A DNA stretch of 64,000 bases from Methanobacteriota archaeon (lineage in GTDB: Archaea > Thermoplasmatota > Thermoplasmata > SG8-5 > DAIRED01): assembly GCA_043799545.1 (NCBI GenBank), contig JAZDNO010000002.1:42269-106268 (forward strand). The letters run 5' to 3'. Below, one piece after another: positions 11,544 to 32,427 of this stretch. Position 1 is the stretch's first letter. Every line of letters starts with the position of its first letter. The translations under genes were made by a program, and so were the position numbers. Below the pieces are notes generated by a model. The model did no database searches. It saw nothing but the letters and a program-made list of their open reading frames with translations, and was not told where the DNA came from.

Positions 11544-11698
11544 CAAATCCCAGCTTCAAATAAAAAACAAGTGGGGGCGCTGGGATTCACGACCGCGCTC
11601 CGGCGCGGTCTGGTCGCAAAACTGCGGTTTTGCTCCTGAACCTCCGGTTCAAATCTCAGCTTCAAATAATAAATAAGTGGGGGCGCTGGGATATTCAC
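11544..11698. repeat. Duplicated ~47-bp unit containing the tRNA-Trp 3' end (att-like), separated by two hairpins
   Basis: aagtgggggcgctgggatt (11569-11587) and aagtgggggcgctgggat (11675-11692) match 32249-32267 (19 and 18 bp). Confidence 0.85.
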
Positions 11699-11714
11699 TT
11701 ACTCAGTGTAGCCA

Positions 11715-12056
11715 GTGTATGGCGTCTGGTACCACCCAAAAGCAGAATTACGCCAGAATTCCCCATTTTTTAACGTGCGAACAGCAGATGCGCACAGGGG
11801 GATACCCTTGACGGCTACGATTGATGACTTAGTAAAAGCACATAATACTTTAGAATCAATGATTAAAACCATGTCATCATGCACTCGACCAGTGCAATGC
11901 CATAACTGCCCTAAAAATGAAAGATGTGTTAATGACCTGCACGGATTTGCAGTTAATCTTCAACTATCCATGCAAAACTACGCTCGGATGCACGAAATCG
12001 AGATTTCTGGCTACGACCTCGAACCGATACGCCCAAGCGGAGAGCCACCATGCTAG
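11715..12056 (+). CDS. Hypothetical protein with a Cys cluster (CHNC...C)
   Basis: 113-aa ORF overlapping the start of the 645-aa gene; no recognisable family. Confidence 0.35.
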   Translation: MYGVWYHPKAELRQNSPFFNVRTADAHRGIPLTATIDDLVKAHNTLESMIKTMSSCTRPVQCHNCPKNERCVNDLHGFAVNLQLSMQNYARMHEIEISGYDLEPIRPSGEPPC

Positions 12057-13987
12057 TCACCATCGAACAAGTAAGAAAAATCATTAGCACCATTCCAATT
12101 CAACACCAGGACGACTGGAAATGGATTATCCATTTTTGTGCTAAAGCAACCGATGATGAATTGGCTGACATTATCTACGATCTCCCGGTTCAGGATATTC
12201 AAGCAATCAATACGCGCATGATCAAAGGTAAGTATTTCGCCGAATTCGCCACAGTGATGAAGATAACATCGTCCTACGAGCGCAAGATACAGCAATTTCT
12301 CACGTTAGCACAGGAAACGCTAGAACATGCCGACTTCTCGGGCATGGCCCTTAGAAAGCATATAAGGCGCATTTGCGCCTTGAAGATTCTAGCTATAAAG
12401 GATAAGAAAAAGAGGAAAATCCCAAAGGATGACCTCATTAACACTGCCTGGGACTTGGAAAAGGCCGTATTATTGATTCCTAAGACTTTTCCCCAATGCC
12501 AATGGATTATCAACGGTAACAGAACGCCCGAGAAGATTAAATTCGCTCTGGGCGAACTCAAAGAGGAACTACAACGCTCCAGGATGCGCTTCTCGACCAC
12601 CAGGAGAAGGTATTTCAGAAAGGCGATCTCCCTGAACTACGAAGCCATACTAAAGGAATTCCTGGACACCAAAGGACGTAACCTAAAGCTCCACAAAACA
12701 CGCATCGACCGCCTGGTGATAGACGTTTACCACCCCGAACTGATGACGTTCCATCCGGAGGTAATGTCCATCCTCTCCAGGAACGAAGCCGAGAGGAACG
12801 TAGAATTCGCCAAGTCCAGAATCATTCCACAATCGAAAATTGACGCTCTGCGCAAAATCGAGGGAGAATTCACCGCAGAGGCCGATATCGATTCGATAAC
12901 GAAACAATGGGAATCGGACCGCCAAGAACAGCTGGAAAAAGGCTTCGCCTCGAGGGGAAAGATTATTCAAAAGTATCCTTGGGGGAAAGTCGAATTCACT
13001 TACGAACCACACTCAATCGGGGCACCGATACGCTTACGCTTGATAACCAACGTCCAAAACTGCATTCGCCAGGAGCTATTCGACAGATATCCAGATAAAG
13101 AAGCCATGTACAAAGCTTCTAGCTGGGGCGGCAACAGTGAAATTAACTTCATACTGCCCCAGGACTACGATTACTATTATCAATCGGAACGCCCGAAATG
13201 CGACTGGCTTTACAGCAAGGCCAAAGAACTGTTCATGCAGCTTATCAAAGAAGCCCTGGACATGGCCGTTCAGAACCCAGACAAGCTCATTGTCTATGTA
13301 TCCCAATTCGAAATATGCTGGGAAGAACCCCTTGAAAGAACCCACGCACTCAAACCGTTCACGAAACTCGAATATCCAGCACTATCAACCTACCTAAATG
13401 ACAAAGCCGTAGAAATGAACGGTATTGGCAACTACGTCAATTGCAAGATAGAAAACGGCAGACCGTCATTCTATTGCGATATCGCTTCGCTCGATCCTAC
13501 AACGCCAGTCATGCAATATAAGATTTATCCTAAATTTCATATTGCTGGCAAGACCTACCTTCGACACGAACTGACGAATACTAAGTTCTCCAAATTAATC
13601 GACTCGTCGATAGACAGAGAACAAAGCGGGCTGAGTTATACGTTACTGAACGATCCAGAATTCGCTCGAAAGACATTCGAGGAAATCTTCTGGCTCGAAA
13701 CGTATAACCATCGAGGAGACGGTTATAACCGCAGATACTCCCAGGACACAAGCGACGAAGCTCAACTGAACTTCTTTGCCACTCTCACGGCCAAGGCCGT
13801 GTTCAATCAATCCTACCTGTCCAGGACAGGAGATATGATTCAACTTATGAGAACTGGCAGATGCCCCAAAACAATCCGGGGCAGGCCAAGGAGAACAATG
13901 GAGGAACTAGGTATAATCTCCAAGCAAAATAGAGGAAACTATCTTGCTACTCAACTATACCTCAAATACGCAAATGGAAACGGGTAG
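12050..13987 (+). CDS. Putative replication initiator, divergent Rep_trans-like (rolling-circle) fold
   Basis: 645 aa. Motifs in the order expected for Rep_trans: RIDRLVID ... VSQFEICWE (cf. RLDLAFD) ... YKIYPK (cf. RIYNK) ... YLRHEL (cf. WRVEIE). The ORF is solid; the family call is tentative. Confidence 0.5.
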   Translation: MLVTIEQVRKIISTIPIQHQDDWKWIIHFCAKATDDELADIIYDLPVQDIQAINTRMIKGKYFAEFATVMKITSSYERKIQQFLTLAQETLEHADFSGMALRKHIRRICALKILAIKDKKKRKIPKDDLINTAWDLEKAVLLIPKTFPQCQWIINGNRTPEKIKFALGELKEELQRSRMRFSTTRRRYFRKAISLNYEAILKEFLDTKGRNLKLHKTRIDRLVIDVYHPELMTFHPEVMSILSRNEAERNVEFAKSRIIPQSKIDALRKIEGEFTAEADIDSITKQWESDRQEQLEKGFASRGKIIQKYPWGKVEFTYEPHSIGAPIRLRLITNVQNCIRQELFDRYPDKEAMYKASSWGGNSEINFILPQDYDYYYQSERPKCDWLYSKAKELFMQLIKEALDMAVQNPDKLIVYVSQFEICWEEPLERTHALKPFTKLEYPALSTYLNDKAVEMNGIGNYVNCKIENGRPSFYCDIASLDPTTPVMQYKIYPKFHIAGKTYLRHELTNTKFSKLIDSSIDREQSGLSYTLLNDPEFARKTFEEIFWLETYNHRGDGYNRRYSQDTSDEAQLNFFATLTAKAVFNQSYLSRTGDMIQLMRTGRCPKTIRGRPRRTMEELGIISKQNRGNYLATQLYLKYANGNG

Positions 13988-14119
13988 ATACAAACACCAT
14001 AGACAACCATCGCCAGCCCAGGCTACGCCGTTGGGCAGCTAAATGGTTTATATGGAAAGGTCTGCTCGACCATAGCAATCAGTTTAAACGCAGGCCATTT
14101 CTTCAAAATGGCATACACA

Positions 14120-14340
14120 ATCAGACTTGAATCAAGTCCGATTGACAGCTTAACTAGATAACCGTCAGCACTTGACGGCTCGCCGGGCTGCGCCTCGGCT
14201 CGCCTCGAGATTAGAGGCGTTCCCGGCCTTTCGGCACAGTTTGGGGGCTTGCTGAGCAGCCCCACAAATCTTGGGCGCTACGCCCCCAACGCCCTACACC
14301 TATGGTGATGGGCTAAGGCCACCTTCCAGGTGGCTCAAAG
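14120..14340. other. Cluster of inverted repeats, candidate replication origin
   Basis: GACTTGA-A-TCAAGTC (14124-14138), CCGTCA/TGACGG (14162-14178), CGCCTC/GAGGCG (14201-14219), GGGCG/CGCCC and GCCACCT-TCC-AGGTGGC, in a non-coding region right after the Rep-like gene. Confidence 0.45.
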
Positions 14341-15270
14341 GATTTGCTGGGGAACGTCCATATGGCGAAAATGATTTTCTACCTATGGTGGACCGTAATC
14401 CCACGTTGGATACCAACAATACAGAAGCACACGTCTGAAATAACGTATAATGACGGACTTTCATAAAAGCCCCTCTTTAATGTTCCCGACTACTCTAGTT
14501 TGCCAGACAAAAAGCTTACTCATATCTATCAATATGAGCCAAGATGCACTTAAATTCAATCATTACACTACGCTGCATTCATTCATAAGAGTTTATCACG
14601 GCGAATAAGAGACGATCAAAGTAAGCATTTGTCAAAGGCTAAGACAGTAATCTAGGAACGTTCAATCGAATAGGCTCTAAAAAGCCCATTCTAACTTATA
14701 TTCAGACGTTTTAATGCTTCATGAATGGTAACCAGGATAAGGATTACGTCCTTATGTGGCCTCTCGGCGGAGCCTTCGGCCATCCACATATGACATGCAA
14801 TCGGTGAAAAATCTCCACGGCTACAGCTTAAGGACAGAAACTCAATCCTAACTATAGCCATCCAGCCGTAGTATTTTTAACTATACAACTGTGGCAATCC
14901 TATTTACGCAATTTCAGAACTTATGGCCTTCGGTACCCTCGGGCCAGATAATCATTTCCGGTTCCGGAAAAGATTTCAATGATGCTCAATGGAACGTATC
15001 AGGGAAGGCGATTACCGGAAATGTTATCAGGCCACGGCCATGCCGACCTTCTCCATTTCAGCCTATGCTCGAAGGTCCCACACTGTCAAAATTTCCTTGC
15101 CGTCTTTTCGGTCATTCCAGCACCCCCGATGGAATCGAGGTGCAGTAATGACACCATTGGTTAGGCCGTCCGGGGCGAATGACCGGAGAAGCGTGATAAC
15201 ATCCGAGCCGGGATGGGAATACTCCCATGCCTTTAAAATAAGGGAATTCAGCGACCAGGGGGTATTCTGA

Positions 15271-15564
15271 ATGAGTCCTCCCGTCTGGTTCAAGACACTC
15301 GACCACCTGGCAAGTGTGCCTGGGAATGGGTACACGGACTTGACCGCTCCGAGAGGATGTAACCAGGACGGCATCGCTGCGGCCCTGGGGATAACCAGGG
15401 CGCACGTTGCACTGAATCTGAAGAACCTTGTCAATCGCGAGCTCGTGATGGTGCGTTTGCTACATGTTCCCGGTAAAAACCGGAAGGTCAGGACGTACCA
15501 GCTAACGTTTTACGGTTACAAATTCCTCCACGAGCTTCACACCAGGCGTGGTCAGGAGGTGTGA
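15271..15564 (+). CDS. Winged helix-turn-helix protein
   Basis: NQDGIAAALGITRAHVALNLKNLVNRELV...RTYQLTFYG. Confidence 0.8.
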   Translation: MSPPVWFKTLDHLASVPGNGYTDLTAPRGCNQDGIAAALGITRAHVALNLKNLVNRELVMVRLLHVPGKNRKVRTYQLTFYGYKFLHELHTRRGQEV

Positions 15565-15567
15565 GCG

Positions 15568-15729: not shown

Positions 15730-16172
15730 GATAATGCTTCTGGCTTATCCGATTAAATTCTTGTCTGGTAGTATGACCATGATACTATTATGTATTGTGA
15801 TGATTATATGGGATATGATGATAATATGATGCGAAGGCAAGCTCTGTCAGAGTTACCAATCATAAATATTCGGTTTATAGGAGGGTATTATTAATGGAAA
15901 AATGGGAGTCAAAAAGAAAAATATTAATTTTTTATAGTTATTCCCATCTTGATAAATATGATGTTGGAAAATTAAAAAGTATACTTGAAATGCATGGATT
16001 TGCTGGGTTTTTAGCCCATGAAGATATTCAACCATCGAGAGTATGGGAACAAGAAATTTGTGAGGCTATTCAATATTCTGATATCTTCATACCCTTTCTC
16101 ACGAATAACTTTAAAACGTCCACATGGACTGATCAAGAATGTGGGATGGCCATGGCTCAAAATAAAAAGCTA

Positions 16173-16871
16173 ATGAGTGCTCCCAAGGCTAAAGCCTTGG
16201 GTATCCTCATCAGTTAGCTGGAGTAATCGTTCAGAGACCTTTGAGGAGTCATAATTTCAGGCATCATCTTACTGGGCCATGCCCTTGTCGGCGCATTGTC
16301 TGGGTGGTGCTTTTTCTGGGATGATTCGATGTAATGTTTGATGGTCTCCTCGTTCACTTCGCTGATTGGTCGAAAGAACTTGCCAGCGGACCATAGATGG
16401 CACCGGCTGTAGCCATCCAATTCGGGGAAGACAAGTCTCAACTCTCTGGAACTGCAGCCCTTCAGATATTGTATCACCTGGCTAATCGCCTGGGAAGGGC
16501 GGATATTCAAGAACAAGTGTACGTGGTCTTCCATTATTTCGTAAGCCTTGATTTCAAATCCGTGCCTCTCTGCAATCGCAAAGAATATAGCGGCCAATCG
16601 CCCTTTAATGTCTGCTCGGGCAAACATCTTAGAACGTTTGTAGGGCACAAGCACCACATGGTACTGGCAACATCCATAGGCATGGCTGAATGATCTGGCG
16701 GGATCCATTTGTGTCATACTCCTGGCGGTTCCAAGGCGCGCCGCGAAGCGGCGCGCGCCGTCAAAACGCCAGTATCGCGTGTATGGCTAAAAAGATGCCC
16801 CGGGTTAGCCGGTGCTTGCTCGCCCTACATCCCCAACCTAAAGGTTGCGGTATTAGGGCTAGGTCAGCCTA
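16173..16871 (-). mobile_element. IS200-type element (IS200/IS605 family, tnpA only, ~699 bp)
   Basis: Right-end hairpin CCCAAGGC-TAAA-GCCTTGGG near 16182-16201; left-end hairpin GCCCTA..CAACC-TTTA-GGTTG..TAGGGC. On the minus strand the target TTAT precedes the left end and the right end finishes in TCAT. No TSD and no tnpB. The exact junction is ambiguous by a few nt. Confidence 0.85.
16214..16717 (-). CDS. tnpA: Y1 HUH transposase (IS200 TnpA)
   Basis: YHVVLVPYKR, EDHVHLFL (HUH), YLKGCSSR, LWSAGKF and IKHYIESSQ (catalytic Tyr). Confidence 0.95.
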   Translation of the reverse strand: MTQMDPARSFSHAYGCCQYHVVLVPYKRSKMFARADIKGRLAAIFFAIAERHGFEIKAYEIMEDHVHLFLNIRPSQAISQVIQYLKGCSSRELRLVFPELDGYSRCHLWSAGKFFRPISEVNEETIKHYIESSQKKHHPDNAPTRAWPSKMMPEIMTPQRSLNDYSS

Positions 16872-17459
16872 ATAATGCCACTGGAAGTAGATATATTACC
16901 ATATGGATTTTTAAATAAGTATCAAAGCTTTAGATACAATCGTCATTCACCTGAAGTAATGGCTGCTAAAATAATTAAAATCATTATGGGTTCAAATATA
17001 AAAGGTATAAAGAGCAATATGATTAACATGTTCTCGGAAAGTCCCTCATTTGATAAAGCAAAATGTAGGGCTAAAATGCTTAAAAAATTTAATAATTTTA
17101 CCCGAGACGAAATTAATTATATCATTGAAAGTAGCATTAAAAATGACCAAATATATAATTCATTTGGTGCGAGGGATGTATTACTTGAATTTTTAAAGAC
17201 ATACGAAGGCCAAATCGTAGAAAAAAATATTGATAAACTAAAGGATATTTTTTCAAAAAATCCTATAAGTGGTTAGTAATTTGTAATCACCGTATGCCAC
17301 TCTGCCATTCCCTTCTGAAGCAATTTCCTTCGTGCGCTCCGCTGTTTGTATTCAATCGGTTCTGAAAGCCGGAGTTAGGTTATTAATAGGCGAATACCCA
17401 TCATTGGACCGTGAGCGCGAATAGGAACCGTCACTTGGGGGCGAACGGAGGGCGCGAGT

Positions 17460-17834
17460 ATGCCATTATTGTTAGCTAGCCATCGAATGCGAACACTTCT
17501 TGAGAACTTATCTGATTCATTACTTTCTAAATGTCCAAGTATAGAATGGAACGACTCTGATCAATGGAGAACTTTTAAAACAAAACAAAATGGATTAGTT
17601 TTTGTTCGTATCAGACCATACAAAGATTCAATTGCCATTTTTCCACATTTACCACTATCATATATGGAACAGATCGAATCTTTTAAGGTGTTTCCGGTGT
17701 CTGGCAAAAAATGGGAGAAGAAAAGACCATTTCGTTTTAATATCGTAAAACAGGAACAGATTCAGGAAACGATTCACATTTTAATGGATGCTAATTACTA
17801 TACAATCAATGGAACGTTAGAGCACCCACCATGA
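17460..17834 (+). CDS. Hypothetical protein, DUF5655/YdhG-like fold
   Basis: 124 aa; FVRIRPYKDSIAIF...FRFNIVKQEQIQETIHIL pattern. Confidence 0.5.
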   Translation: MPLLLASHRMRTLLENLSDSLLSKCPSIEWNDSDQWRTFKTKQNGLVFVRIRPYKDSIAIFPHLPLSYMEQIESFKVFPVSGKKWEKKRPFRFNIVKQEQIQETIHILMDANYYTINGTLEHPP

Positions 17835-17934
17835 GCCCCCTCCCCCGTGCATGCCATAGAACGACGAAAGGGGGCGTTGATGATGGTATGTTTAAGTCCG
17901 CCGAGGAGGATAGCGGATGCGGAGGCGACAAGTC

Positions 17935-18088: not shown

Positions 18089-18361
18089 CTATTTCTCCAA
18101 CTCTTCGTCCACTTTGCTCAGAAGGGTTGCCACGCGCTTGCCTTTGTCGGTCAGGGAGATTAGCCGCCTCCCGCCGAACTTGTCCTCGGTTTTCTCGACA
18201 ATCAGACCGTCGGCCCTCAGCTCGCCCAGCCTTGAGCTTATCGTGCTGATGCTGCCGCCCGTGGCTTCGGCTAGCTTGGAGAACGGGATGGCCTTTCCCT
18301 CTTGGTGAATGGCGATGAGTACGTCCATCGATTTGCTACGTTCCAAATTTCTGAGACTCAT
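18089..18361 (-). CDS. Winged-HTH (MarR/HxlR-like) regulator
   Basis: MDVLIAI...FSKLAEATGGSISTISSRLGELRADGLI...RRLISLTDKGKRVA. Confidence 0.88.
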   Translation of the reverse strand: MSLRNLERSKSMDVLIAIHQEGKAIPFSKLAEATGGSISTISSRLGELRADGLIVEKTEDKFGGRRLISLTDKGKRVATLLSKVDEELEK

Positions 18362-18807: not shown

Positions 18808-21800
18808 ATGAGAACATTTACCAAGGCGCTGGCGACGGTGTGTGTAGGCGTAATGTGCTTGACCGCACTCCAGAACGTTTCTGCCGGAGCTTATGACGAG
18901 GGGGAAGACATGGATATTTTCACGGATTCCCTTGGGAACAGGCATATGGTCTGGAGGGAATTAGTCAACGGGGTTTATCAGGTATTCTATAGCCTAGAGA
19001 TTGTCGATGATGAATACACGACAAACTATCAGTCTTATATGACACAGACCATTAACCAGAACTTAAATTTCGACGACGGGTACCTTACCATCCAGAATTG
19101 CCAAATTAATGGAAATTTAAAATTAACTCGCGCACAGGTCTCAATCATCAATTGTACGATAAATGGAAATGTTAAAATCGATATGGGAACGATGATAATC
19201 CGTTCAACTTCGTTACATGGAAACCTGGATATTAAAAATGCGAATTTAGAATTACGGGTTAACGAAATCAATGGGAACGTTAAATCTCAGACAAATACGG
19301 ATTTGTTTTTCCAAACTGTTATCACAGGCAATGAGATTGATGGAAATCTAGATTTAAAGAGTGGTATCTGCTACGTGGTTGGTAACTCAGTAAATGGGAA
19401 TCTCGATATCAAGTCTCCGGCCACAATTCAGTCGGTGAGTGATAACGATGTGAATGGAATGATCAAATTAACAAGCGATACAAGTGGTTTTAATGGAATC
19501 CAGATAACCAATTTAACGACCAATGCAGCATATCCGCAATGTGCAATGGACCCAACAACTGGATTATTCTACATAATATGGGTCACGAATGAAGGTGGGT
19601 ACAGGGCATGGTATAGCGGTAGTGACGATGTGGTCGAATGGAGCCTTCCTTATGTTACCGACGTTGTTATCAATACGTGTGACAATCCGCAGATGGATTT
19701 TATAGCGTATGGTGGAACCCTGAGCATCTCATGGTTGCAGTATGGCAATGCTCAAATTGTTGCTGACTTGGACTTTGATATGATTCCAGACATTAGTGAC
19801 GTTAATCCATTAACATATGATTCTCAAATCGGTATTGGAACGTTTAGCCCGGATGTTATCATGGCGGATGGTACGATGGGAATCAGTGTCGCTATTGATT
19901 ACGCGACGAATTTGACTATCAAACCGACACTCGCCATAGCCTCGTGTCCGATTCTAAATGCTAATTATGGGCCTTATTTTAGCGTTACAATAGGGTCATC
20001 AGATAATTTCACCGCCATCATTAAAATGAAGTTTGACCCGAATGCACTCTCCACTGACACAATCAAATACCTGCGTATGTACTGGCTTAGGGACGATACG
20101 AATTGGAAAATATTAAAAAATGTTTCCGCTGGGGAGGATACAGGGGTTGATTTGGACAATGGATATGTTTGGGCAGTTACTGCTCATTTCAGTACATTCA
20201 CAACCGCGGATTCTTCAATGGTGGATTCTGATTCTGATGGACTTACCGATGCCCAGGAGATAAATGCTGATGGAAGCTTACCTATTGTTATCGATAAATT
20301 TTCAGACGATTCAGCGGAAAGAAGTTTGATATTCAGCGGTTCAGACAGCCAAACTGTATGGTTGAAAGTTCCTATTAGCCAGATTGACATACTTCGCGCA
20401 TCATCAACCCAGATGGATGTTACAAGTAAATTATTCCAAATGTCAGTTCAGCAGATGTTATACAATGATGATGCTGCAGTTTATCAGTTAAGTCCCCAGA
20501 TATATGAGGATAAGGTGATTTGGTGCGACAATCGATACGATACAGTTTCAGGAAAATGCGCAGTATTTTTGAAAACAATTGGAACACCTGATGAAATACA
20601 ATTATCTTCGATTAATGAAAATTCTGGAAACGCGAAAATATCGGGTAATTATGTAGTGTGGTCTACATATAGCTCAACAAGCAATAAGATTAGCGTTTAT
20701 AATATTGAACGGAATGAGATAATCCAAAGTTTTGGGGTAAGTGCCGGTGATTTGGATATTTATGGTGATATAATGGTGTGGAGCGAAATGAGCGTTTACG
20801 GACCAGACTATCTATATACCTACAAAATCAGCACACAAGAACTTCAACAAATTACTACAACGGATTGTGGAGCCACTCATATATATGGCGATTATATAGC
20901 ATATCATGATCATACGCAGGGTGGATTGTGGCTATATCAGCTATCGACTCAACAATATACGAGAATCACGACTGCGGGTGTGAATCCCTGGATGCTCGAT
21001 ATTGATGACCGATATGTTGCATATTTAGATATAACTTCAAATGATATATATGCCTATGTCCTAGCTACGGGTGATACGATTCGATTGACCAATACATTTT
21101 CGTATGAAAGCAATCCCTCAGTCGACGGTGGAATTGTTCTCTGGACTGATTATAGAAATGGCGATCCGGACATATATGGTTTTGACATTCTAAAAAATTT
21201 TGAGATTCCAATATGTGTTGCATCAGGTAATCAGGGAGCTGCATCAAAATATGGAGATAATATCGTATGGCAAGACCAGCGAAATAGTCCACTTCCAAGA
21301 ATATATAGGGGAACAATCGGAACTCCATCTATTTCTATTGCTATTGGAGATAGAAACTTAGATAATATTGTGATGGACGGGACGAATTCAGAGTTCCCAG
21401 ATTTTTCTGTGCCATTAAATTATTATCTTTCGACACATAGTGATAGTGATGATGGGGTATCAGACAACTTTATCTCCGTGCCGCTGGCATTCTCAACAAC
21501 AGCTGTGGGGGAATTGACATTTTCAAACCTGGAAATCAATATTTATCCTGCCCTTACAGATCCAGTGAATTGGGATACGGACGGCGAGGGTCTTTCCGAT
21601 GGTGATGAAGTATTGATGTATTTTACGGATCCATGCGACATTGATACAGACGACGATAAATTGTCTGACTATGATGAACTCATGGGAATCTATCATGGGT
21701 ATATCAGCGACCCAAATAATCCTGACACAGATGGGGATAAAATAAACGATGGTGTTGAGGTAAATGTTTTATCGACTCAAAATTCGGAAATTAATACATT

Positions 21801-24800: not shown

Positions 24801-27800
24801 TGCAACAACTCCATTATCCTACACAGGAGCGTTGTATTCCATCGTCATTTCCAGCTTTTCAAGCTCTGATACTGGTTCCTATCAAATAACACGAACAAAT
24901 CAGGCTCCAGTAGCAGAAATAATTTCGATATCTCCAAACCCAGTTACAGCAGGATCAGCAATTACATTCGTCGGCTCTGGAACGGATTCTGATGGATTTA
25001 TCGATGGATATTCGTGGTCGATATGGGTTATCGGAGGGTGCGATCCCGCAGTATTCACTAATACTCAGACATTCTCATGGGTTACGACTATTGTTGGTAC
25101 ACATACCGTATATTTTTCTGTGTGTGATGATGATGGCGTCTGGGCATCATCTGATATCGCAACGATAACTGTAACCGCGGCCTCTTCGATCATCTCAATA
25201 CCAGCCCCAATGATTTATGAGGATAAACTACCCTCATCGAATTATAACTGTGGCAATTCAATAAATGACCCAACTCTCCTTACAACCGTACCATCTGAAT
25301 TGCCTATTGCATCCATCGATTCGATTGGACCATCTCCATCGAGATACAACGAACTTGTTACAATGAGAGGGCATGGAACGGGAGCCAATGGTCGGACAAT
25401 CAAAGCATTTAGCTGGAGGTCCGGTGCAACAGCATTGGGTACATCTGCCACGACATCAACGCAATCATTGAGTGCTGGTATCCACATCATCTATTTCAAG
25501 GTCCAAGACAGCTCTGGTCTATGGTCTGAAGAAGTTGGGAGTGTTCTAGTCGTGAAAAGTAATATTCCGCCAATGGCTTTGATTTCGGCACCAATGGATA
25601 GCGCGGTGTTCGTATTTGGCGAGGACATCGTGTTCAATGCAGGGACAAGCTCAGACTCCAACAACGACAGGTTGACGTTCAACTGGGACTTCGGTGATGG
25701 AGCTACAAGTACTAATGTGGTATCTCATCATGCCTACATTATAGCTGATAATAATCAAAACCAGGAAACTACGTATACAATCCGATTGACAGTCAATGAT
25801 GGAATACTCGTGTCCGAGACTTCGATTCATATCCATGTACGGTCGAATATTATGCCGACAATAAGTTACACTCCAAATATTCGGACTACCTTAAATTATG
25901 AATACAAATCGACTCTAGCATCTCCTACCATATCCGTAGAGGTGGCGAATGATGATTGGACCAATCAAAATTTCCGATTGACGACAGAAACTATTTCGTT
26001 AACAAAAGGCATCAACAATTATCTAACATTATTCCATCAAGCGAATGTTGCAGGTACTGCGACTATAGTGTTAAAAATTTCGTCCACCTCTGCAGGACTA
26101 ATACGCGTTTCCAGTCTCTTCGTTCAAGTTTCAATCCTCGTGCTCGATTCTTCTTTCCCAGATACCGACCTTGACAACCTTGATGACGGAATCGAAGTAT
26201 ATGTGCACGGAACAAATCCATGTGTGCAGGATACGGATGGCGACACTTTGTCCGATTACTACGAGATAATGGGCACCCCGACCAGACCAGAGTTTCGTTC
26301 TGACCCGCTCTTATGGGACACAGATAACGATGGCTTAAACGATTATGAAGAATATTCTTATATCGGGTTAAATCCGCAGAACCGTGACACTGACGGAGAC
26401 TACCTATTTGATGGTGATGAATTATATCCATCGTTATACCATAAAGATTGGTTGTACACACCGTATTCGTCAAATCCCTTGAATCCGCATTCTGACAATG
26501 ATGGGTTGAATGACCATGCCGAAGCCATATTCTTGTGCAACCCAAAAGCCGTAGATACCGACCGTGATTACCTTTGGGATGGTGATGAAATCGATCCAAT
26601 TAATTTCCATAAAGACTACTACGAGACCGCTTTCTCATCTAGTCCAACGGTAATGGATTCAGACGCAGATGGGCTGACTGACTATGAGGAAGCCAGATAC
26701 CAATCGAATCCGATGACGAGTAATTCTGATGAGGATGGAATAAGCGACCCAGACGAGTTAACATATTTGTTGAATACTCCAAGATACCACTCATCGGGTG
26801 AAGGAACAATCATATATGGTGAGCAAACGTACAATTTTATCGTAGAAATGCCTCCAATTTATGGAACAGTACAAATGGTATATCTTTATCTAAGAATAAT
26901 GTACCCATATCTGGGATGGCAATTTACCCTAAGTTATTCAAGCCAGGGAGTCACAATCAACCAATTTGAAATAGAATATTCAACTGAGCAATACCTTGTG
27001 GGGGCACACGATCCAGACTGGTACCACCCATTGACACTTACCAAGGGAAGCGTCTGGACTTTGTCCGTTTATAGTCCCGAACCGTATGTTCTCGATATTC
27101 TACAGGAATTTTCATTGTTATTCTATAAATCTCCCTCGCCAACGCTCACGGACAGTGACGGGGACGGATGGAACGACAGCCTCGAAATCGGACAGGGCAC
27201 GGACCCTACATACTGGAACGATATTTCTGTAGGACTTGACACAGACGGTGACGGGTTGAGCAACAGCGTAGAAGACGCAGACGGAGACGGGGCGATAGAC
27301 GGCGATACAAACAACAATGGCATTATTGATTATGGCGAGATTTGGCATGAAACAAACCCGAACAATCCTGATTCAGACGGGGACGGCCTGTGGGATGGGG
27401 ATGAAATCGACCCGATAACAATCCATAAAGATGCGTATGAAACAAAATTCCCATCAGACCCAAAGCTGAAAAACTCGGATTCTGATACCTTGGATGATAG
27501 GCAGGAGGCTATATACCAGTCCAATCCGAAATTGAAGCACTCAGACAACGACGGGCTGGATGACGCACAAGAGATAGCATTTGGGTGCAGTCCGACAAAC
27601 CCAGACAGCGATGTTATCAACGGCATGATGGTCGGCGACGGCCTATACGATGGTTGGGTCGATACTAACGGTGATGGAGTATACAACGCGGGAGAGCCCA
27701 AGGGCGAACTCGGCGATCCTGACCTGGGATATGCTGGGGGGCTCGGGACGGACCCGCACGACCCCGACATGGACAACGACGGGCTTCGAGACGGCTGGGA

Positions 27801-29583
27801 GGATACCAACGGTGATGGTTGGTACCAACCGGGTGAGACCTGGGGCGAAATTGGAAACAGTCTCCAGGGGCTAGGGGGATATGGCACGTCCCCAACAGAT
27901 GAGGACTCCGATAACGATGGAATCAATGACGGACCGGAATCGATATACTGGCTGACGCAAACGGGAACGCGTGCGGTAGACTCTATTGGGACTCTACTGA
28001 ACAACCCGAATTCTGATGGTGACGGATGGACAGACGGCGAGGAAATTAATACCTATTTCACGAACCCAGGGCTGACTTCCACAGACTCGGACGGAGTTCC
28101 AGACGACTGTGACATTGACCCTCTCGTAAATACACAAGTTACATTGAAGATAACAGAGATAGAAGCAAAGGATGATGTGGATCCAAATAATGATCCTGCA
28201 GACTTTTTTATAAGATGTAATATCAACGGTGTTCTATTTGGGCGTAATCCAACTATTAATGACGATACACCATCGAATTACCTAGTCAATAAAAATGGTA
28301 TCGGAACGTGGGATCAGGACAATCACAAAACACCAGATGAGATTGAGAACCAATTACAATTCACCGTGGATGTTTCGGATGACAAGACACAATATAATAG
28401 TAGGATGGAAATCGAAATTGCAATCTCCCTTTTCGATGATGACTATGGGCGCAGTCCGCCTGATGATGACCTATGTGATATAACTCGATTCCCGATTTCG
28501 AATACTGCTTATATATTCTATAGTTTAAAATTCGCTCAATGGTCTGGTGAGGATGCGATATATTTCGATCCTTTATCAGATCCTAGTAACACCCCAGGTG
28601 ATCCACCAACGGGGGGTATTTATGATGACCGATTCGAATATAATTACGGCAATTATGGGCGTAGCTATGGGATGATATCTGGTGAAGAGGATGGTATTAG
28701 AGGGGATGAGAATGATTGCATAGTATGGTTTGATATTACACAAAGTGATTTTGATAACGATGGGTGGACGTATTGGGAAGAGATGGATTATTTTGGCACG
28801 AATCCAAAAATCACTAATCAAAAATATGCTATTGTTGTTGGATGCTCTAATTATGATGATGAACCAATATATACAAATGATCTACGATGTGGCGATAATG
28901 ATGGAAAGGTCGTGTACGATTGGTTATTGGCTGCAGGCTGGTCCCGAGATAATGTATATTTCTATGTCAACTCTAACTTAGAGGATGGAGATCCAGGAGC
29001 ATCTGAATTAAGAGAATATGATGTCGATGGTGAGCCAACGACAGCGAACGTTGATAATGCATTTAGTATTATTGACGGTTGTGTTACTGAAAATGATATT
29101 ATCTTTTTCTACTATTCTGGACACGGTGAAGCAGGGACCTCATCTTTATGGTTTGTTGGTGAGGATAAATACAGTCCTATAAGTTTATTAAATAAATTCT
29201 CATATTTACATGCAATGCATAAAATACTTATTCTAGATTCTTGCTTTGCTGGTGGTTTCGTTGATGAGATTAATAAAGTAATATCTGGAAATGCGTATGT
29301 AGATACGATTGTAATAGCTTCATCAACTAGCGCCGAAACAAGTGGTTATTTGCCCCCTCGCTTTGGAATCGGTGACATTGAGTTAGTAACCAATAGTTAT
29401 ACAACCCTTGACATCACAAATTATATTCTTCAGAGACCATCCGAGCCCATTACACACCCCAGAAGTCTCCAAGATGTCATCGATTTCCTCCCCGAACGAC
29501 CAACTCAGCATCCACAAAGTGCTGACCGCGGAGGTATTGCACAGGATATCTATTATCTCGATGTAGGGTGGTGTAACATATGA
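18808..29583 (+). CDS. Giant secreted multidomain protein (3591 aa) with C-terminal caspase-like (clan CD, C14-like) protease domain
   Basis: Signal peptide; GN[LV]xI beta-helix; two beta-propeller repeat blocks (IVWxDxR..GxxDIY); PKD domains; six ~80-aa repeats; many DxDxDGLxDxxE Ca-binding repeats; C-terminal KYAIVVG..YYSGHG..ILDSCFAGGF. No C-terminal TM. Confidence 0.9.
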   Translation: MRTFTKALATVCVGVMCLTALQNVSAGAYDEGEDMDIFTDSLGNRHMVWRELVNGVYQVFYSLEIVDDEYTTNYQSYMTQTINQNLNFDDGYLTIQNCQINGNLKLTRAQVSIINCTINGNVKIDMGTMIIRSTSLHGNLDIKNANLELRVNEINGNVKSQTNTDLFFQTVITGNEIDGNLDLKSGICYVVGNSVNGNLDIKSPATIQSVSDNDVNGMIKLTSDTSGFNGIQITNLTTNAAYPQCAMDPTTGLFYIIWVTNEGGYRAWYSGSDDVVEWSLPYVTDVVINTCDNPQMDFIAYGGTLSISWLQYGNAQIVADLDFDMIPDISDVNPLTYDSQIGIGTFSPDVIMADGTMGISVAIDYATNLTIKPTLAIASCPILNANYGPYFSVTIGSSDNFTAIIKMKFDPNALSTDTIKYLRMYWLRDDTNWKILKNVSAGEDTGVDLDNGYVWAVTAHFSTFTTADSSMVDSDSDGLTDAQEINADGSLPIVIDKFSDDSAERSLIFSGSDSQTVWLKVPISQIDILRASSTQMDVTSKLFQMSVQQMLYNDDAAVYQLSPQIYEDKVIWCDNRYDTVSGKCAVFLKTIGTPDEIQLSSINENSGNAKISGNYVVWSTYSSTSNKISVYNIERNEIIQSFGVSAGDLDIYGDIMVWSEMSVYGPDYLYTYKISTQELQQITTTDCGATHIYGDYIAYHDHTQGGLWLYQLSTQQYTRITTAGVNPWMLDIDDRYVAYLDITSNDIYAYVLATGDTIRLTNTFSYESNPSVDGGIVLWTDYRNGDPDIYGFDILKNFEIPICVASGNQGAASKYGDNIVWQDQRNSPLPRIYRGTIGTPSISIAIGDRNLDNIVMDGTNSEFPDFSVPLNYYLSTHSDSDDGVSDNFISVPLAFSTTAVGELTFSNLEINIYPALTDPVNWDTDGEGLSDGDEVLMYFTDPCDIDTDDDKLSDYDELMGIYHGYISDPNNPDTDGDKINDGVEVNVLSTQNSEINTFTDGFSTKDIIFTEAGSQTISFEIPITAEAIEYAQASSVQFACQEYLVIDKTKYHHKLAMNDNTIVWADKVDGNYDIKSYNFINDVSNQIPTLSGDQVEPAMYNNIVVWTDYRNDADGKYTGTGDNGDIYLYNIATGVGKYISSSTQNDFDPAIYGNYVVWVRENNNQHDIILYDIEKGYENSATGEIATLGGMPYNQFEPSIWGQRIVWTDSRDGNLNIYMHDISTGITIPVTNNQAIQDSPCIYEDVIVWRDNRNSNWDIYSCTVGTSGENKLSKMSSNEFSPMVWQAGVVWTKANDDHFDAQWYSDGVTLTTFPHSTLTDQLLCTAWGQNIAWIDSSGSGSKITIYSVGDAPQATITSITPDPASPDTYTFQGIGSAAGSATIMDYRWYSDLDGLLSSADTFTTSSMTKGTHDISFTVRSSNGLWAIPFHSTIVINNDIPIAYISSISANAVIKGQSVTFYGLGTDSDGSIVKYRWVSSLDGDIGSQASLATNMLSSGNHEIFFSVMDDAGEWSTVVSSGPIIVSESSVTTGNIPTGGGMIWQSTYPRLISIQVTAGASSNFGISVDGRTSRNVKNSGTYSYVGYATSISLSSFDSGESGTYSVLPGILTSYSGNIKSEDVIWESDVLREVTVKVVSNTGEFEINANGNWRSLANLGTYWYVGRTGSIGIDSPGGSFSGTYQITLGILNGYSGLFYDSGSTEVVWESDTARDATVRVTSTSGTFSVNANGNARTMAYPGTYWYVGITSCVQMTYVGSGDSGNYEIILGVPGSASSYTGTFAYAASTQVVWESDTARVATVKVSSTSGSFAVNANGNTRSIASPGTYWYIGSTNCVQLSSMDSGDGGNYVITLGVVDTPYGYSGTISDAGTSEVVWESDIDRLMTVKVVSTDPDLGDTFSVKIDGATRATLAKPGTYWYVGNIHLVELSLFGPDDAGIYEIKNGIAESYSGSLFHDGVSGGSEVIWESDTSILGCQVDIVASSGSFTASVNGGSTVTVSATTPLSYTGALYSIVISSFSSSDTGSYQITRTNQAPVAEIISISPNPVTAGSAITFVGSGTDSDGFIDGYSWSIWVIGGCDPAVFTNTQTFSWVTTIVGTHTVYFSVCDDDGVWASSDIATITVTAASSIISIPAPMIYEDKLPSSNYNCGNSINDPTLLTTVPSELPIASIDSIGPSPSRYNELVTMRGHGTGANGRTIKAFSWRSGATALGTSATTSTQSLSAGIHIIYFKVQDSSGLWSEEVGSVLVVKSNIPPMALISAPMDSAVFVFGEDIVFNAGTSSDSNNDRLTFNWDFGDGATSTNVVSHHAYIIADNNQNQETTYTIRLTVNDGILVSETSIHIHVRSNIMPTISYTPNIRTTLNYEYKSTLASPTISVEVANDDWTNQNFRLTTETISLTKGINNYLTLFHQANVAGTATIVLKISSTSAGLIRVSSLFVQVSILVLDSSFPDTDLDNLDDGIEVYVHGTNPCVQDTDGDTLSDYYEIMGTPTRPEFRSDPLLWDTDNDGLNDYEEYSYIGLNPQNRDTDGDYLFDGDELYPSLYHKDWLYTPYSSNPLNPHSDNDGLNDHAEAIFLCNPKAVDTDRDYLWDGDEIDPINFHKDYYETAFSSSPTVMDSDADGLTDYEEARYQSNPMTSNSDEDGISDPDELTYLLNTPRYHSSGEGTIIYGEQTYNFIVEMPPIYGTVQMVYLYLRIMYPYLGWQFTLSYSSQGVTINQFEIEYSTEQYLVGAHDPDWYHPLTLTKGSVWTLSVYSPEPYVLDILQEFSLLFYKSPSPTLTDSDGDGWNDSLEIGQGTDPTYWNDISVGLDTDGDGLSNSVEDADGDGAIDGDTNNNGIIDYGEIWHETNPNNPDSDGDGLWDGDEIDPITIHKDAYETKFPSDPKLKNSDSDTLDDRQEAIYQSNPKLKHSDNDGLDDAQEIAFGCSPTNPDSDVINGMMVGDGLYDGWVDTNGDGVYNAGEPKGELGDPDLGYAGGLGTDPHDPDMDNDGLRDGWEDTNGDGWYQPGETWGEIGNSLQGLGGYGTSPTDEDSDNDGINDGPESIYWLTQTGTRAVDSIGTLLNNPNSDGDGWTDGEEINTYFTNPGLTSTDSDGVPDDCDIDPLVNTQVTLKITEIEAKDDVDPNNDPADFFIRCNINGVLFGRNPTINDDTPSNYLVNKNGIGTWDQDNHKTPDEIENQLQFTVDVSDDKTQYNSRMEIEIAISLFDDDYGRSPPDDDLCDITRFPISNTAYIFYSLKFAQWSGEDAIYFDPLSDPSNTPGDPPTGGIYDDRFEYNYGNYGRSYGMISGEEDGIRGDENDCIVWFDITQSDFDNDGWTYWEEMDYFGTNPKITNQKYAIVVGCSNYDDEPIYTNDLRCGDNDGKVVYDWLLAAGWSRDNVYFYVNSNLEDGDPGASELREYDVDGEPTTANVDNAFSIIDGCVTENDIIFFYYSGHGEAGTSSLWFVGEDKYSPISLLNKFSYLHAMHKILILDSCFAGGFVDEINKVISGNAYVDTIVIASSTSAETSGYLPPRFGIGDIELVTNSYTTLDITNYILQRPSEPITHPRSLQDVIDFLPERPTQHPQSADRGGIAQDIYYLDVGWCNI

Positions 29584-30317
29584 AAAAGAACATCAAAGGA
29601 GTCGGAGCCATAATATCGATTGTAGTTATTCTCTCTGTAATATCGGTTTATCTTTATATACCAAGTGATTACAAACCAAAATATACCTTGTACACGGCAC
29701 CTAGACAAATTCAATCTAGATTCATATCATCATCTCCAACTATCGACGGGAAACTGGGACAGAATGAATGGGATTATGATGAACTCAGCCAGATCATTTT
29801 ATCATCAAATTTCACTGAAGATTCTCTCACTTGCCAATATATTATTCAAAATATAAATTCAACGTTGTTCCTTTTATTTCGAATAAGCGATGATACTTAT
29901 GGCCCTTTAGACATTTATATAGATAATCGAAATGATAACCTCCTAGACTATACACAAGAACCAATGGAACACCGTCTTCATTTTTACAAAGATAATTTAC
30001 AATGGTGTATATTTTCAAGGGATATTGATGGAAATTTCACTTGGAATGCTGGAGAAAAACGACCAATGCCAAAGATAGTTCAAAGCTTTGGATCGAGCCA
30101 ATCGGAGGATTGGATCGTTTATGAGATAGCCCTCTCCATGACCGAGGAAAACGAGATAATCCTGGGATTAAATAATTCGATTGGAATGGATTTTGCATAT
30201 TGGGACTACGATGTTGGTCAATATTATTTTACTGACCCATATGGTAATCCTGCAGGTGATGCCTCGAATTATACGGACATTTACCTAGCTAATGCTCCAC
30301 AGGATCTACGGGAGTGA
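29580..30317 (+). CDS. N-terminally anchored exported protein with a CBM9/DOMON-like domain
   Basis: ATGA overlap with the giant gene; hydrophobic N-terminal helix; SPTIDGKLGQNEWD...LFLLFRISDD...WIVYEIAL pattern. Confidence 0.7.
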   Translation: MKKNIKGVGAIISIVVILSVISVYLYIPSDYKPKYTLYTAPRQIQSRFISSSPTIDGKLGQNEWDYDELSQIILSSNFTEDSLTCQYIIQNINSTLFLLFRISDDTYGPLDIYIDNRNDNLLDYTQEPMEHRLHFYKDNLQWCIFSRDIDGNFTWNAGEKRPMPKIVQSFGSSQSEDWIVYEIALSMTEENEIILGLNNSIGMDFAYWDYDVGQYYFTDPYGNPAGDASNYTDIYLANAPQDLRE

Positions 30318-30798
30318 AAAATGACCTTCCGTAACCCCCGAACCTGCCGGAGAAAACGCCAGAAGGCGTTGTGTGGCAGCGTGAGCCTTCCCGACAAACC
30401 GTCGTCTGGGATGCCGCCGCTGATCCTCCCGGTGCTTCTCATAGATGAAAAGACCCTTTGCTATCCACCATCCATCGACGGAACAGCGCATTTACTCCGC
30501 AATCCGGCGCTGTATTGCACAGCAAAATATGGGCGGGAAATTCGTAAATCCTTTCGCCAAACACCCCCGTACCGTACGCTTATAGAAACGTTTAGTCCGT
30601 AGAGGATACACGACCGATTCGCAACAAAGCTCAGACCCTTCGCCGTGAATATTATCCCATTGGCGGGAGGCAGCGAAGATGCCTCGATGGAGCATCCCCG
30701 TCCAAGATTTGATGGTAAGATATCGAATGATGGATTGCGACAATTTATAGTTATGGGATGAAGGAAGAAAAGGATGACAGAAAGGTTTGTATTAATAC

Positions 30799-31164
30799 TC
30801 ATCTCACTTTTTTATAGAACTTCGGGGGATCATATATAAAACCACTATACCCAGAGATCTCACCATCACGAAAATCAAGGTCATGAGCGACACGAATCCC
30901 TCTGGGTGTCAAGTAAATCATTCTTTTCCTGTGTCCCTCAGTTGAATAGTCATCCTTTATCAAACCAGCGTTTATTAAATCTTTAAGACGGAGGTTGATT
31001 GTGGAGTTACTACAATCTATAACTTCAGACAGCTCGGATAAAGACATCGTAATTGGTAATGACTTTTCTAATGGATCTTCCTGGTATAACGCAAGCAAGA
31101 TTTTTATAGCTCCAGGAGCTTCAAGTATGTAGATTGGTCTTTTTGGTACATCATTTTTTTTCAT
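30799..31164 (-). CDS. Winged-HTH regulator, divergent from the integrase
   Basis: AIKILLALY..SLSELSEVIDCSNSTINLRLKDLINAGLI..RMIYLTPRGIRVA. Confidence 0.88.
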   Translation of the reverse strand: MKKNDVPKRPIYILEAPGAIKILLALYQEDPLEKSLPITMSLSELSEVIDCSNSTINLRLKDLINAGLIKDDYSTEGHRKRMIYLTPRGIRVAHDLDFRDGEISGYSGFIYDPPKFYKKVR

Positions 31165-31306
31165 CGCGAAACATTATATCAGGGCTCATATTTATAATTA
31201 CCGAATTTGACATTGGGTAAAATTAATATACCCGACAATGCATACCCATTTTCAATATGAGTAATTACCCGAAAAAGAAACAGGAATCGAACAAGAGGAT
31301 GATATA

Positions 31307-32227
31307 ATGCGTAATCCAGCATATCTCATCAGAGCTAACGAGTGGCTCGATGGCCTCAGGAAGAAGAACTATAGTGAGATGACAACGCGCAAGGCTTATC
31401 GTTGGCCGCTAATGGCCGCGTACAGGGCTCTAAAGAGCAAAGGATATCCTACACAGATTAGATCTATCGGTTCAGAAGCCGCATTATTCGTTATTCAGGA
31501 TGTTTTCCATGGACGCGCTAAAGACATCGCAGCATGGAACCGGTTCTTGCTAGCCAACAAGAATCCGGTCATCGAGATGCTGGAGTACCACGTCAATCCA
31601 AGCACGAGAAGCACCGTGGATTGGCTGAACCTAGAGAAAGGCGAGGACTTCGCCGTTTGGGAAGCCGCGCGAGAAATCAGGGAAAAAGCCCTGATTCACT
31701 CGGAACTTTACCTTGGCATGCGCAGGATATCCGTCCAGCGGTTCCAGCTTTCATGGTTCAATGGACAGAGCATAAACATCCATGGCAAAGGGCGGGGAGG
31801 CGGCAAATGGCGTACGATAGCGCCGCACAAAGATACTGCCGAGTTGTTCGCAACCGTAAAAGAGCATAATTCCCAGCTTGCCAAGAAAGCCGGTTCAGAC
31901 TCATATCCCGACAATATGATGTTGTGCGTGAAAGGTACGAACCTCAGGAAATACGGGTTCACTTCGTTGGACAACATCGTCAAGCGGGTTTCCGTCAGGT
32001 CCGGGATAGAATTCAGCCACCACACGTTGAGGAGAACCGCAGGCCGTAGGATGTGGAAGGCAGGAATCGCCATCGAGAGCATCGCGAGGTTCCTCGGGCA
32101 CTCCGACATTAGGATGACCATGTTATATATCGGCGCTAACTACGACGATACCGAGGCGGCGATGCGAGCCGCCGAGAAATGGGACGAAGAACGTAAACGG
32201 TCCGCGAACGGTACAGGGGGTCCATGA
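31307..32227 (+). CDS. Tyrosine recombinase/integrase
   Basis: YLGMRRIS (R), GKGRGGGKWR (K), HHTLRRT (HxxR) and LGHSDIRMTMLY (H, catalytic Y); ends 24 bp from the tRNA-Trp 3' end. Confidence 0.95.
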   Translation: MRNPAYLIRANEWLDGLRKKNYSEMTTRKAYRWPLMAAYRALKSKGYPTQIRSIGSEAALFVIQDVFHGRAKDIAAWNRFLLANKNPVIEMLEYHVNPSTRSTVDWLNLEKGEDFAVWEAAREIREKALIHSELYLGMRRISVQRFQLSWFNGQSINIHGKGRGGGKWRTIAPHKDTAELFATVKEHNSQLAKKAGSDSYPDNMMLCVKGTNLRKYGFTSLDNIVKRVSVRSGIEFSHHTLRRTAGRRMWKAGIAIESIARFLGHSDIRMTMLYIGANYDDTEAAMRAAEKWDEERKRSANGTGGP

Positions 32228-32251
32228 GCCAGCAAATCCAAAAAATAGAAG

Positions 32252-32427
32252 TGGGGGCGCTGGGATTTGAACCCAGATCAGCGGGTTTCTTCCACGCCGG
32301 GAGCTACCCGGCGCGTTTTCTGAACTACGGGTCAGCGCTCCAGTCATACATCACTTCTTCAGCAAACCCGTTGGCAATCATGCCCGTAACTGGAGCCCGC
32401 GAGGATACCGTGTTACCCCACACCCCC
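32252..32427 (-). tRNA. tRNA-Trp(CCA) with a 103-nt intron at 37/38
   Basis: Acceptor GGGGGTG/CGCCCCC-A; anticodon arm GCGGG-CT-CCA-G[intron 32287-32389]A-CCCGC; T-arm CTGGG-TTCAAAT-CCCAG. Confidence 0.95.
32287..32389 (-). ncRNA. Intron-encoded box C/D guide RNA of tRNA-Trp
   Basis: Stem TACGGG/CCCGTA enclosing C (ATGATTG), D' (CTGA), C' (GTGATGT) and D (CTGA) boxes. Guides ACTGGAGC and CGGGTTT are complementary to positions including C34 and C39 (D+5 rule). Confidence 0.88.

Follow-up and report, generated by a model that had tools for sequence, protein, structure and literature searches.

In this work we describe a mobile element of about 20.6 kb that is integrated in a 64,000-nucleotide stretch of contig JAZDNO010000002.1 (assembly GCA_043799545.1, from an archaeon of the Thermoplasmatota lineage SG8-5), hereafter called the window, to whose first letter all positions refer unless another contig is named. 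We give a probability of roughly 0.6 to the reading that a tyrosine integrase (int) drove this element into a tRNA-Trp gene, that a 645-amino-acid (aa) protein serves as its rolling-circle replication initiator (Rep), and that its remaining genes are regulators and cargo. We regard the integrated element and its borders as secure, and the assignment of the 645-aa protein to the Rep_trans superfamily, which is made on a modelled fold and on motifs, is well supported, short of being proven. What is new here is a Rep family that, as judged from sequence, is separate from DUF7845 and has no match in the profile libraries. The element itself is not a new category, because the archaeal Rep-Arvir initiators, which are Rep_trans-like, and the split layout of int and rep are already published (PMC13107129), which weakens the claim of an earlier sequence-only reading of this DNA that it represents a probably undescribed type.

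The integration site and the genes and repeats that define it are the following.
32251 to 32427, minus strand: tRNA-Trp(CCA) gene with a 103-nucleotide (nt) intron, the integration target (ARAGORN, introns allowed).
11675 to 11692, unstranded: attL core, an exact 18-nt copy of the tRNA-Trp 3' end and the true left border of the island.
32249 to 32266, unstranded: attR core, within the tRNA-Trp 3' end.
31307 to 32227, plus strand: intact tyrosine integrase of 306 aa (PF00589, E 3.8e-12; PHROG integrase, E 2.4e-19).

Plain ARAGORN and Rfam at gathering thresholds miss the intron-containing tRNA-Trp and show the tRNA-Arg at 32737 alone. The 18-nt core (plus strand AAGTGGGGGCGCTGGGAT) is formed by the last 16 nt of tRNA-Trp and 2 nt of its trailer, and the 2.06-Mb genome contains three exact copies of it, at 11569 to 11586, 11675 to 11692 and 32249 to 32266. 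In a genome of the same genus (G001, contig C107), which shows the MtrA, tRNA-Arg and tRNA-Trp neighbourhood found at the window locus, the tRNA-Trp 3' end abuts a homologue of window 11426 to 11692 free of the island, i.e. an empty site. Since this empty site keeps the homologue of 11426 to 11692, the insertion lies between the cores at 11675 to 11692 and 32249 to 32266 (20,574 bp from core to core), and since it occurs in a congener, the insertion is dated within the genus. The tRNA-Trp gene remained intact after integration, because the repeat restores its 3' end. The outer copy (11569 to 11586), considered as an att site of the island, was rejected, as empty-site relatives have it too and it is chromosomal.

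The sequence-only reading had bounded the element, at 11569 to 32267, by direct repeats of the tRNA-Trp 3' end; the repeats are indeed there as exact 18-nt cores and the right end holds, and the left end had been placed on the outer copy instead of the true attL. The empty attachment site (attB) that it had proposed to look for is the one on contig C107. Its view of an accessory integrated element, as opposed to fixed core content, agrees both with this site and with the patchy occurrence of the two key genes among 40 related genomes, in which int is matched in 4 and rep in 3 (mostly as fragments at contig ends), with neither in the congener. The integrase, also claimed to be intact, proved to be so: its gene, unsplit by integration, ends 21 nt from the attR core, the residues R, K, HxxR, H and Y are all readable, and homologues of 312 to 322 aa align over 99-100% of the 306-aa open reading frame (ORF), so that this longer start is the likely one (the public gene call has 226 aa). 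The island also stands out in composition, with a GC content of 44.0% against 58.0% for the 2.06-Mb genome; in the per-kb profile it appears as a sharp low block at about 12 to 32 kb (0.36-0.53), the host-side flanks being mostly at 0.54-0.67.

Two side observations concern the tRNA-Trp gene itself. A structured unit of about 100 nt follows it in three genera (window 11562 to 11690, minus strand; L015, 2712 to 2840; L016, 1385 to 1518; L017, 1689 to 1822), beginning with a copy of the T-stem, continuing with three hairpins and ending in one more copy of the tRNA 3' end, which in the window is the outer 18-nt copy at 11569 to 11586. Across four sequences, 10 of the 29 pairs predicted for it show compensatory changes, its terminal copy varies in step with the acceptor stem of each genome's own tRNA, and in G005 the unit is found in tandem repeat; it may represent a small RNA, a miniature element or what is left of an old att site. 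The intron (32288 to 32390, minus strand) shows, by eye, box C/D-like motifs (TGATGT ... CTGA), comparable to those of the haloarchaeal tRNA-Trp intron, which encodes a methylation guide.

At the opposite end of the island from the integrase lie two overlapping genes.
11715 to 12056, plus strand: orf113, a small ORF that ends just inside the 645-aa gene.
12050 to 13987, plus strand: the 645-aa putative rolling-circle initiator, with a modelled core resembling the TATA-binding protein (TBP) and Rep_trans.

The 645-aa protein is organized in a helical N-terminal domain (about residues 1-205), the TBP-like/Rep_trans-like core (205-560) and a C-terminal segment (about 590-645) that resembles a winged helix-turn-helix (wHTH), being predicted as helix-helix-strand-strand-helix with a conserved GIISK..RG.Y and giving no match to a Pfam wHTH family. 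It belongs to no family in Pfam, PHROGs, PADLOC or the PDB sequence profiles. A word-indexed search recovered 13 relatives, and a search of 1.84 billion representative proteins with the core profile recovered 25; the 16 distant relatives that were scanned match no Pfam family. As for Rep_trans itself (PF02486), there was no match at E <= 0.05 to the 645-aa protein or to 16 family members, and a profile search of the genomes of the order returned nothing.

The structural models point to a relationship at the level of fold. AF2 models reached a pLDDT of 80 for the whole protein and of 83 for the core (pTM 0.82), which was folded separately because, in the whole-protein VIA search, matches of the N-terminal domain to helical bundles crowded out the rest. 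In Foldseek searches against the PDB, the best match of the core is RepSTK1 (4cij; E 3.4e-5, probability 0.98), followed by RepDE (4cwe, probability 0.90, and 4cwc), and in VIA, a search that does not depend on Foldseek, the core gives a Z of 7.8-8.2 with TBP, of 7.3 with RepDE (4cwc, over 171 aa) and of 7.2 with RepSTK1 (4cij, over 190 aa). TBP and these Rep_trans initiators (4cij, 4cwc, 4cwe) are the sole whole-domain matches in the PDB, all others aligning to one helical hairpin. Among the viral models of BFVD the core matches Inoviridae Rep/G2P proteins and TBPs of giant viruses, and its structural and embedding neighbours in the ESM atlas include Rep_trans and Phage_CRI clusters.

The conserved residues complement the fold. 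D220, E421 (in SQxEVCW), K491-x-Y493-x-K495 and R505-x-E507 are retained even in the deepest subfamily (16-22% identity), the motifs of D220, E421, Y493 and E507 are all on predicted beta-strands, and these four candidate residues are spaced 201/72/14. Because an invariant Tyr flanked by Lys is conserved together with acidic residues, a nuclease is favoured over a TBP. The Rep_trans-like initiator gene of the sequence-only reading is borne out at this level of modelled fold and conserved Tyr and acidic residues. Upstream of rep, a homologue of orf113 (57% identity) is found in the related locus L045; small ORFs in the same position in L006, L035 and L036 were considered as its counterparts and rejected, not being alignable.

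Downstream of rep, about 1.3 kb are devoid of any credible ORF up to the next gene, which encodes a small wHTH protein.
14050 to 14365, unstranded: non-coding block 1, structured, downstream of rep; candidate replication origin.
14905 to 15270, unstranded: non-coding block 2, ending immediately before the 97-aa wHTH gene; candidate origin resembling a single-strand origin (sso), or regulatory RNA.
15271 to 15564, plus strand: weak wHTH protein of 97 aa, with sub-threshold MarR_2 and TrmB matches (MarR_2, E 0.01).

Both blocks are better conserved than their surroundings when compared with the closest related element (L005). Block 1 (measured over 14060 to 14360) is 80-96% identical to it, against about 70% for rep DNA and 32-48% between the blocks, and consists of a string of hairpins (DNA-fold z of -6.2 and -6.3 on the two strands) that are kept in L005, one stem with two compensatory pairs. 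Block 2 (measured over 14910 to 15260) is 82-100% identical in 50-nt bins, with fold z of -2.5 and -2.6; its short ORFs are probably not coding, since they differ from L005 by indels of 1 and 3 nt. No Rfam family was found for either block. In L005, L006, L035 and a contig from ENA, rep is likewise followed by some 0.9-1.3 kb of non-coding DNA. From their position and by analogy, the blocks would be replication origins, block 1 the double-strand origin (dso) and block 2 perhaps the single-strand one. As a separate observation, the 93-aa ORF in block 2 (region 14989 to 15564) has a TGA directly before, and in frame with, the ATG of the wHTH gene, and L005 has a TAG there. The 97-aa protein is 79% identical to its L005 homologue (MarR_2, E 9.5e-4), which makes it the best-conserved protein of the element family.

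Relatives of the 645-aa gene recur in similar settings, being at an island border in L005, L006, L037 and L045. In L005 (rep 68% identity), rep comes directly after tRNA-Ala and is followed by the wHTH gene, and the element also encodes surface proteins of 1115 and more than 2373 aa, the second with a Peptidase_C11 domain, so that giant protease-tipped surface proteins occur there too. In L045 (78% identity) rep lies after tRNA-Lys, together with the orf113 homologue; in L006 (54%) it is followed by ParB and many small ORFs; and in L037 it is beside SRP54. The ENA homologue is 85% identical. L005 and L006 are metagenome contigs (JGI 3300063141) that stop short of the far ends of their elements. 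A complete view is offered by L047 and L049 (27% identity), which share a 100%-identical overlap and, once joined, form a complete 10,812-bp element: the tRNA-Lys 3' end is directly repeated over 17 nt, an integrase of 301 aa lies next to the tRNA and rep occupies the opposite end, which is the plan of the window element with different cargo. L035 (36% identity; a 19.6-kb contig of uniform GC from Logan SRR23618951) has the order integrase, three small ORFs, rep, and may be a free plasmid, episomal or viral form of the same replicon family; before its integrase there is a long co-oriented cluster of unknown genes, including one for a BNR-repeat protein.

The integrases at loci of Rep relatives are unrelated or distantly related to that of the window, and relatives of the window integrase occur in other element types; the int and rep modules are accordingly exchangeable. 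A 643-aa gene by an integrase relative in G003 (L033) and a 448-aa gene in L034 were examined as possible counterparts and found to be unrelated to the 645-aa Rep. The proposal of the sequence-only reading, to look for the same int/Rep pair at tRNA-Trp with other cargo, succeeds for the layout (at tRNA-Lys in L047 with L049 and in L045, at tRNA-Ala in L005) and fails for this specific pair, which is not conserved.

Putting these elements together, we propose the following mechanism. The tyrosine integrase recombined the attP core (16 nt of tRNA-Trp and 2 nt of trailer) with the chromosomal tRNA-Trp, creating the 18-nt repeats and leaving the tRNA intact; this integration step is well supported. 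For excision and replication, which we infer by analogy, the element would leave as a circle, in which int, attP, orf113 and the 645-aa gene would follow one another in the same orientation, about 60 nt apart. The 645-aa protein, a putative deeply divergent member of the TBP-fold Rep_trans/Rep-Arvir superfamily, would bind through its C-terminal wHTH-like segment and nick one strand at a hairpin in the structured DNA downstream of its own gene, and its attachment via Tyr493 would prime rolling-circle replication. The TIR gene and the giant caspase-tipped secreted protein with its membrane partner, described below, would be cargo.

The remaining genes of the island are listed here.
15894 to 17276, plus strand: TIR-domain (ThsB-like) gene in two halves, 15894 to 16174 and 16874 to 17276 (TIR_2, E 1.8e-14; PADLOC ThsB, E 2.8e-8).
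16175 to 16873, minus strand: IS200-type insertion of 699 bp, with tnpA at 16214 to 16717 (minus strand; Y1_Tnp, E 2.6e-30) and CTAAT flanks.
17460 to 17834, plus strand: ORF of 124 aa, with no family in Pfam, PHROGs or PADLOC.
18089 to 18361, minus strand: wHTH regulator of 90 aa (HTH_24, E 1.2e-5; Csa3/CARF-type wHTH in PADLOC).
18808 to 29583, plus strand: giant secreted protein of 3591 aa, with a signal-like N-terminus, PKD, TSP3 repeats and a C-terminal Peptidase_C14.
29580 to 30317, plus strand: 245-aa protein with one N-terminal membrane helix, whose start overlaps the end of the giant gene; no family in Pfam.
30799 to 31164, minus strand: wHTH regulator of 121 aa, divergent from int (HTH_24, E 1.1e-4; HTH_27).

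The giant gene takes up 52% of the length of the element. Its product ends in a caspase-like peptidase domain that carries SGHG and DSC motifs, and in its N-terminal region it shares 34% identity with the giant protein of L005. Paralogues are found on contigs C22 (about 92-100 kb) and C31 (about 31-46 kb) of G000, in low-GC islands with no integrase nearby, the N-terminal 309 aa of the one on C22 being 52% identical to the window protein. Because these islands too are low in GC, low GC may be a trait of giant-protein genes or of older islands. About 100 nt after the pair formed by the giant gene and its membrane partner (window 30315 to 30422) are 80-89% identical to C31 34475 to 34564 and 32432 to 32532, both located downstream of one giant-protein paralogue. 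The stretch is a conserved element, either non-coding or a short ORF, that goes with such operons. The TIR_2 domain was placed at 15894 to 16217, and deleting 16175 to 16873 restores an open, in-frame TIR ORF of 227 aa. The insertion has the features of IS200/IS605 elements (a Y1, or HUH, transposase and an interrupted gene), and the genome has one full copy of it and an 85-nt fragment on C2.

These results bear on several claims of the sequence-only reading. The giant protease-tipped secreted protein occupying over half of the element is as it had described; the TIR cargo keeps its domain, in a gene that is now inactivated by the IS200-type element splitting it; and of the three wHTH genes, two are clear (18089 to 18361 and 30799 to 31164) and the third (15271 to 15564) is weak. 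The wHTH proteins are likely regulators. Its failure to recognise capsid, packaging or conjugation genes is matched by our scans of the island with Pfam and PHROGs, in which no capsid, spike, packaging, NTPase or conjugation family was recognised. Self-replication and a nature that is neither viral nor that of an integrative and conjugative element (ICE) would follow from this absence of recognisable genes, which is weak evidence where archaeal viruses are concerned.

This last point leads to a first alternative, namely that the island represents a provirus, either akin to pleolipoviruses or from an archaeal virus family not yet known, with the membrane and secreted proteins as parts of the virion or of the entry machinery and with Rep copying the viral genome as in SNJ2. 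There is a documented precedent, since the temperate virus SNJ2 has a Rep-Arvir/Rep_trans-like initiator and the split int/rep layout; archaeal virion proteins often escape recognition; and distant relatives of Rep (L035, L049, L006) are found within compact, possibly viral clusters of small genes that share one orientation. Nevertheless, PHROG matches in the island are confined to the integrase and the 121-aa wHTH protein, Pfam shows no capsid, spike or NTPase, none of the 2.9 million IMG/VR viral contigs has a relative of Rep, and a single 3591-aa protein filling more than half of the element is atypical of small archaeal viruses. We consider a provirus unlikely.

A second alternative is that of a decaying, immobile island, in which int and the 645-aa gene are relics passed on by vertical inheritance alone. 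The IS200-type insertion, which disabled one cargo gene, implies some residence time and decay; the assembly has no circular junction, second copy of the element or episomal contig; and the other giant-protein paralogues are in islands that lack an integrase. However, the 18-nt repeats match exactly, neither int nor rep is truncated or lacks any of its conserved residues, and the empty site in the congener indicates insertion within the genus, and so this explanation, too, appears improbable.

The insertion and the missing circular forms count against a mobile, self-replicating element, and so do several other points. The 645-aa protein has no sequence-level link to Rep_trans (PF02486) or DUF7845; the VIA Z of 7-8 is middling on the scale of the tool, with TBP slightly above the Rep proteins; and its candidate catalytic residues were equated with those of known initiators from their order, spacing and conservation. 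Additionally, the non-coding blocks could be RNA instead of an origin, and in L005 and L045 it is the rep end that faces the tRNA, not the integrase end, so that orientation varies within the family. In bacteria, NicK and MOB_T relaxases mobilise elements through the transfer apparatus of another element. The idea that the 645-aa protein is no initiator, being instead such a NicK/MOB_T-like relaxase of Rep_trans type, which would mobilise the window element via another element's apparatus, or else a non-catalytic TBP-like regulator, can draw on the Rep_trans fold common to relaxases of the ICEBs1/Tn916 type (PMC13107129) and on TBP scoring as high as Rep proteins in the structure searches, but it is the least probable of the three, for conjugation genes were unrecognised in the element, relaxase and initiator roles can coexist, and the invariant Lys-flanked Tyr and conserved acidic residues are expected of a nuclease and not of a TBP.

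In the chromosome, the island is flanked on one side by genes for a CCA-adding enzyme, a solute-binding protein and a nitroreductase, and on the other by tRNA-Arg and MtrA-MtrH-MetE, the latter as a trio of MtrA-MtrH-MetE-like genes at 32833 to 35383. Since mcrA was not found in the 94%-complete genome, these methyltransferase subunits do not serve methanogenesis here. One genome of the same order is a metagenome-assembled genome from groundwater (JACRNV01).

If the 645-aa protein is indeed a rolling-circle initiator, the archaeal Rep_trans-like branch gains a sequence family that is invisible to profile libraries, in a host lineage without cultured members, known plasmids or viruses. The compact module of int, attP, rep and origin would be a candidate basis for genetic tools in such archaea, and the blocks beside rep, better conserved than Rep itself, are a candidate origin open to direct testing. 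Moreover, because two related elements of this kind both carry giant secreted proteins with peptidase domains, horizontal transfer is suggested to shape the extracellular protein-degrading equipment of subsurface archaea. A tentative extension, to which we give slightly less than even weight, is that TBP-fold rolling-circle initiators comprise, in addition to Rep_trans and Rep-Arvir, a third and very rare lineage founded by the 645-aa protein, with an N-terminal helical domain of its own and an origin that is large, structured and conserved beyond the protein, and that the 645-aa protein defines a family of tRNA-integrating elements moving giant protease-tipped proteins between uncultivated, probably Thermoplasmatota-like archaea.

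Elements comparable in their integration are those of the pNOB8 type and the pTN3/TKV-like elements of Thermococcales, in which an unsplit integrase gene lies by the target tRNA, repeats of the tRNA 3' end bound the element and the content is plasmid-like. These elements use MCM/primase-type or other replication proteins, and we know of no TBP-fold initiator among them; the window element differs from them also in that one giant secreted protein dominates its cargo. Regarding the candidate origins, hairpin-rich non-coding DNA beside rep that is better conserved than Rep recalls the sso and dso of bacterial rolling-circle plasmids, in which the sso types that depend on host factors are conserved between elements beyond Rep. 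The blocks bear no sequence relation to these, and their proposed role as origins comes from position, structure and conservation.

The bacterial Rep_trans proteins (PF02486: RepC of pT181, RepD/RepDE of pC221 (4cwc), RepSTK1 (4cij); also gpII/Phage_CRI of inoviruses and NicK of ICEBs1) provide the best structural matches to the core other than TBP, with Foldseek probabilities of 0.97-0.98 and VIA Z of 7.2-7.3 over 171-190 residues, and the 645-aa protein has a motif of the Y-x-K type on a predicted strand, followed by a conserved R-x-E, which may correspond to theirs. In contrast to them, it is about twice as long, with extra N- and C-terminal domains, and its family is mostly archaeal and is found on elements that also encode an integrase.

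The Rep-Arvir proteins (DUF7845), archaeal initiators present in viruses, plasmids and integrative elements, have a TBP-like catalytic domain whose resemblance to Rep_trans is structural only (PMC13107129, NAR April 2026). The 645-aa family appears distinct from them in sequence: PF25227 does not match the 645-aa protein (the positive control, PAV1 ORF528, gave 2.6e-55), hhalign against PAV1 ORF528 and HHPV3 ORF11 gave a probability of 0.2%, and the 645-aa protein has a helical domain of about 200 aa before the core and its wHTH-like part at the very end. No DUF7845 turned up among 201 genomes of the host's class or 301 of its phylum, and searches of genomes at the level of order, class or phylum detected neither Rep_trans nor DUF7845. 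The closest parallel is nevertheless the betapleolipovirus SNJ2, whose host is not, as here, of a non-halophilic, uncultivated lineage. RepSNJ2 (Rep-Arvir, PF25227) requires Y283, E25 and E303, and its catalytic domain is followed by a wHTH (PMC13107129); the spacing E25/D207/Y283/E303 of 182/76/20 is similar to the 201/72/14 of the 645-aa protein; its Foldseek matches are viral TBPs and Inoviridae Rep (PMC13107129), which is the pattern given by our core. Single-stranded replication intermediates were detected for SNJ2, a conserved hairpin downstream of its rep is the likely origin, and in the provirus integrase and rep are at opposite ends and form one operon only once excised (PMC13107129). 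The window element shares with it the modelled TBP-like core, the position of rep opposite the integrase and the conserved hairpin DNA downstream of rep; the wHTH-like C-terminal segment of its Rep may be a counterpart of the RepSNJ2 wHTH, and the setting of the 645-aa gene fits that of the Rep-Arvir carriers, with low-GC island borders, tRNA genes and tyrosine integrases.

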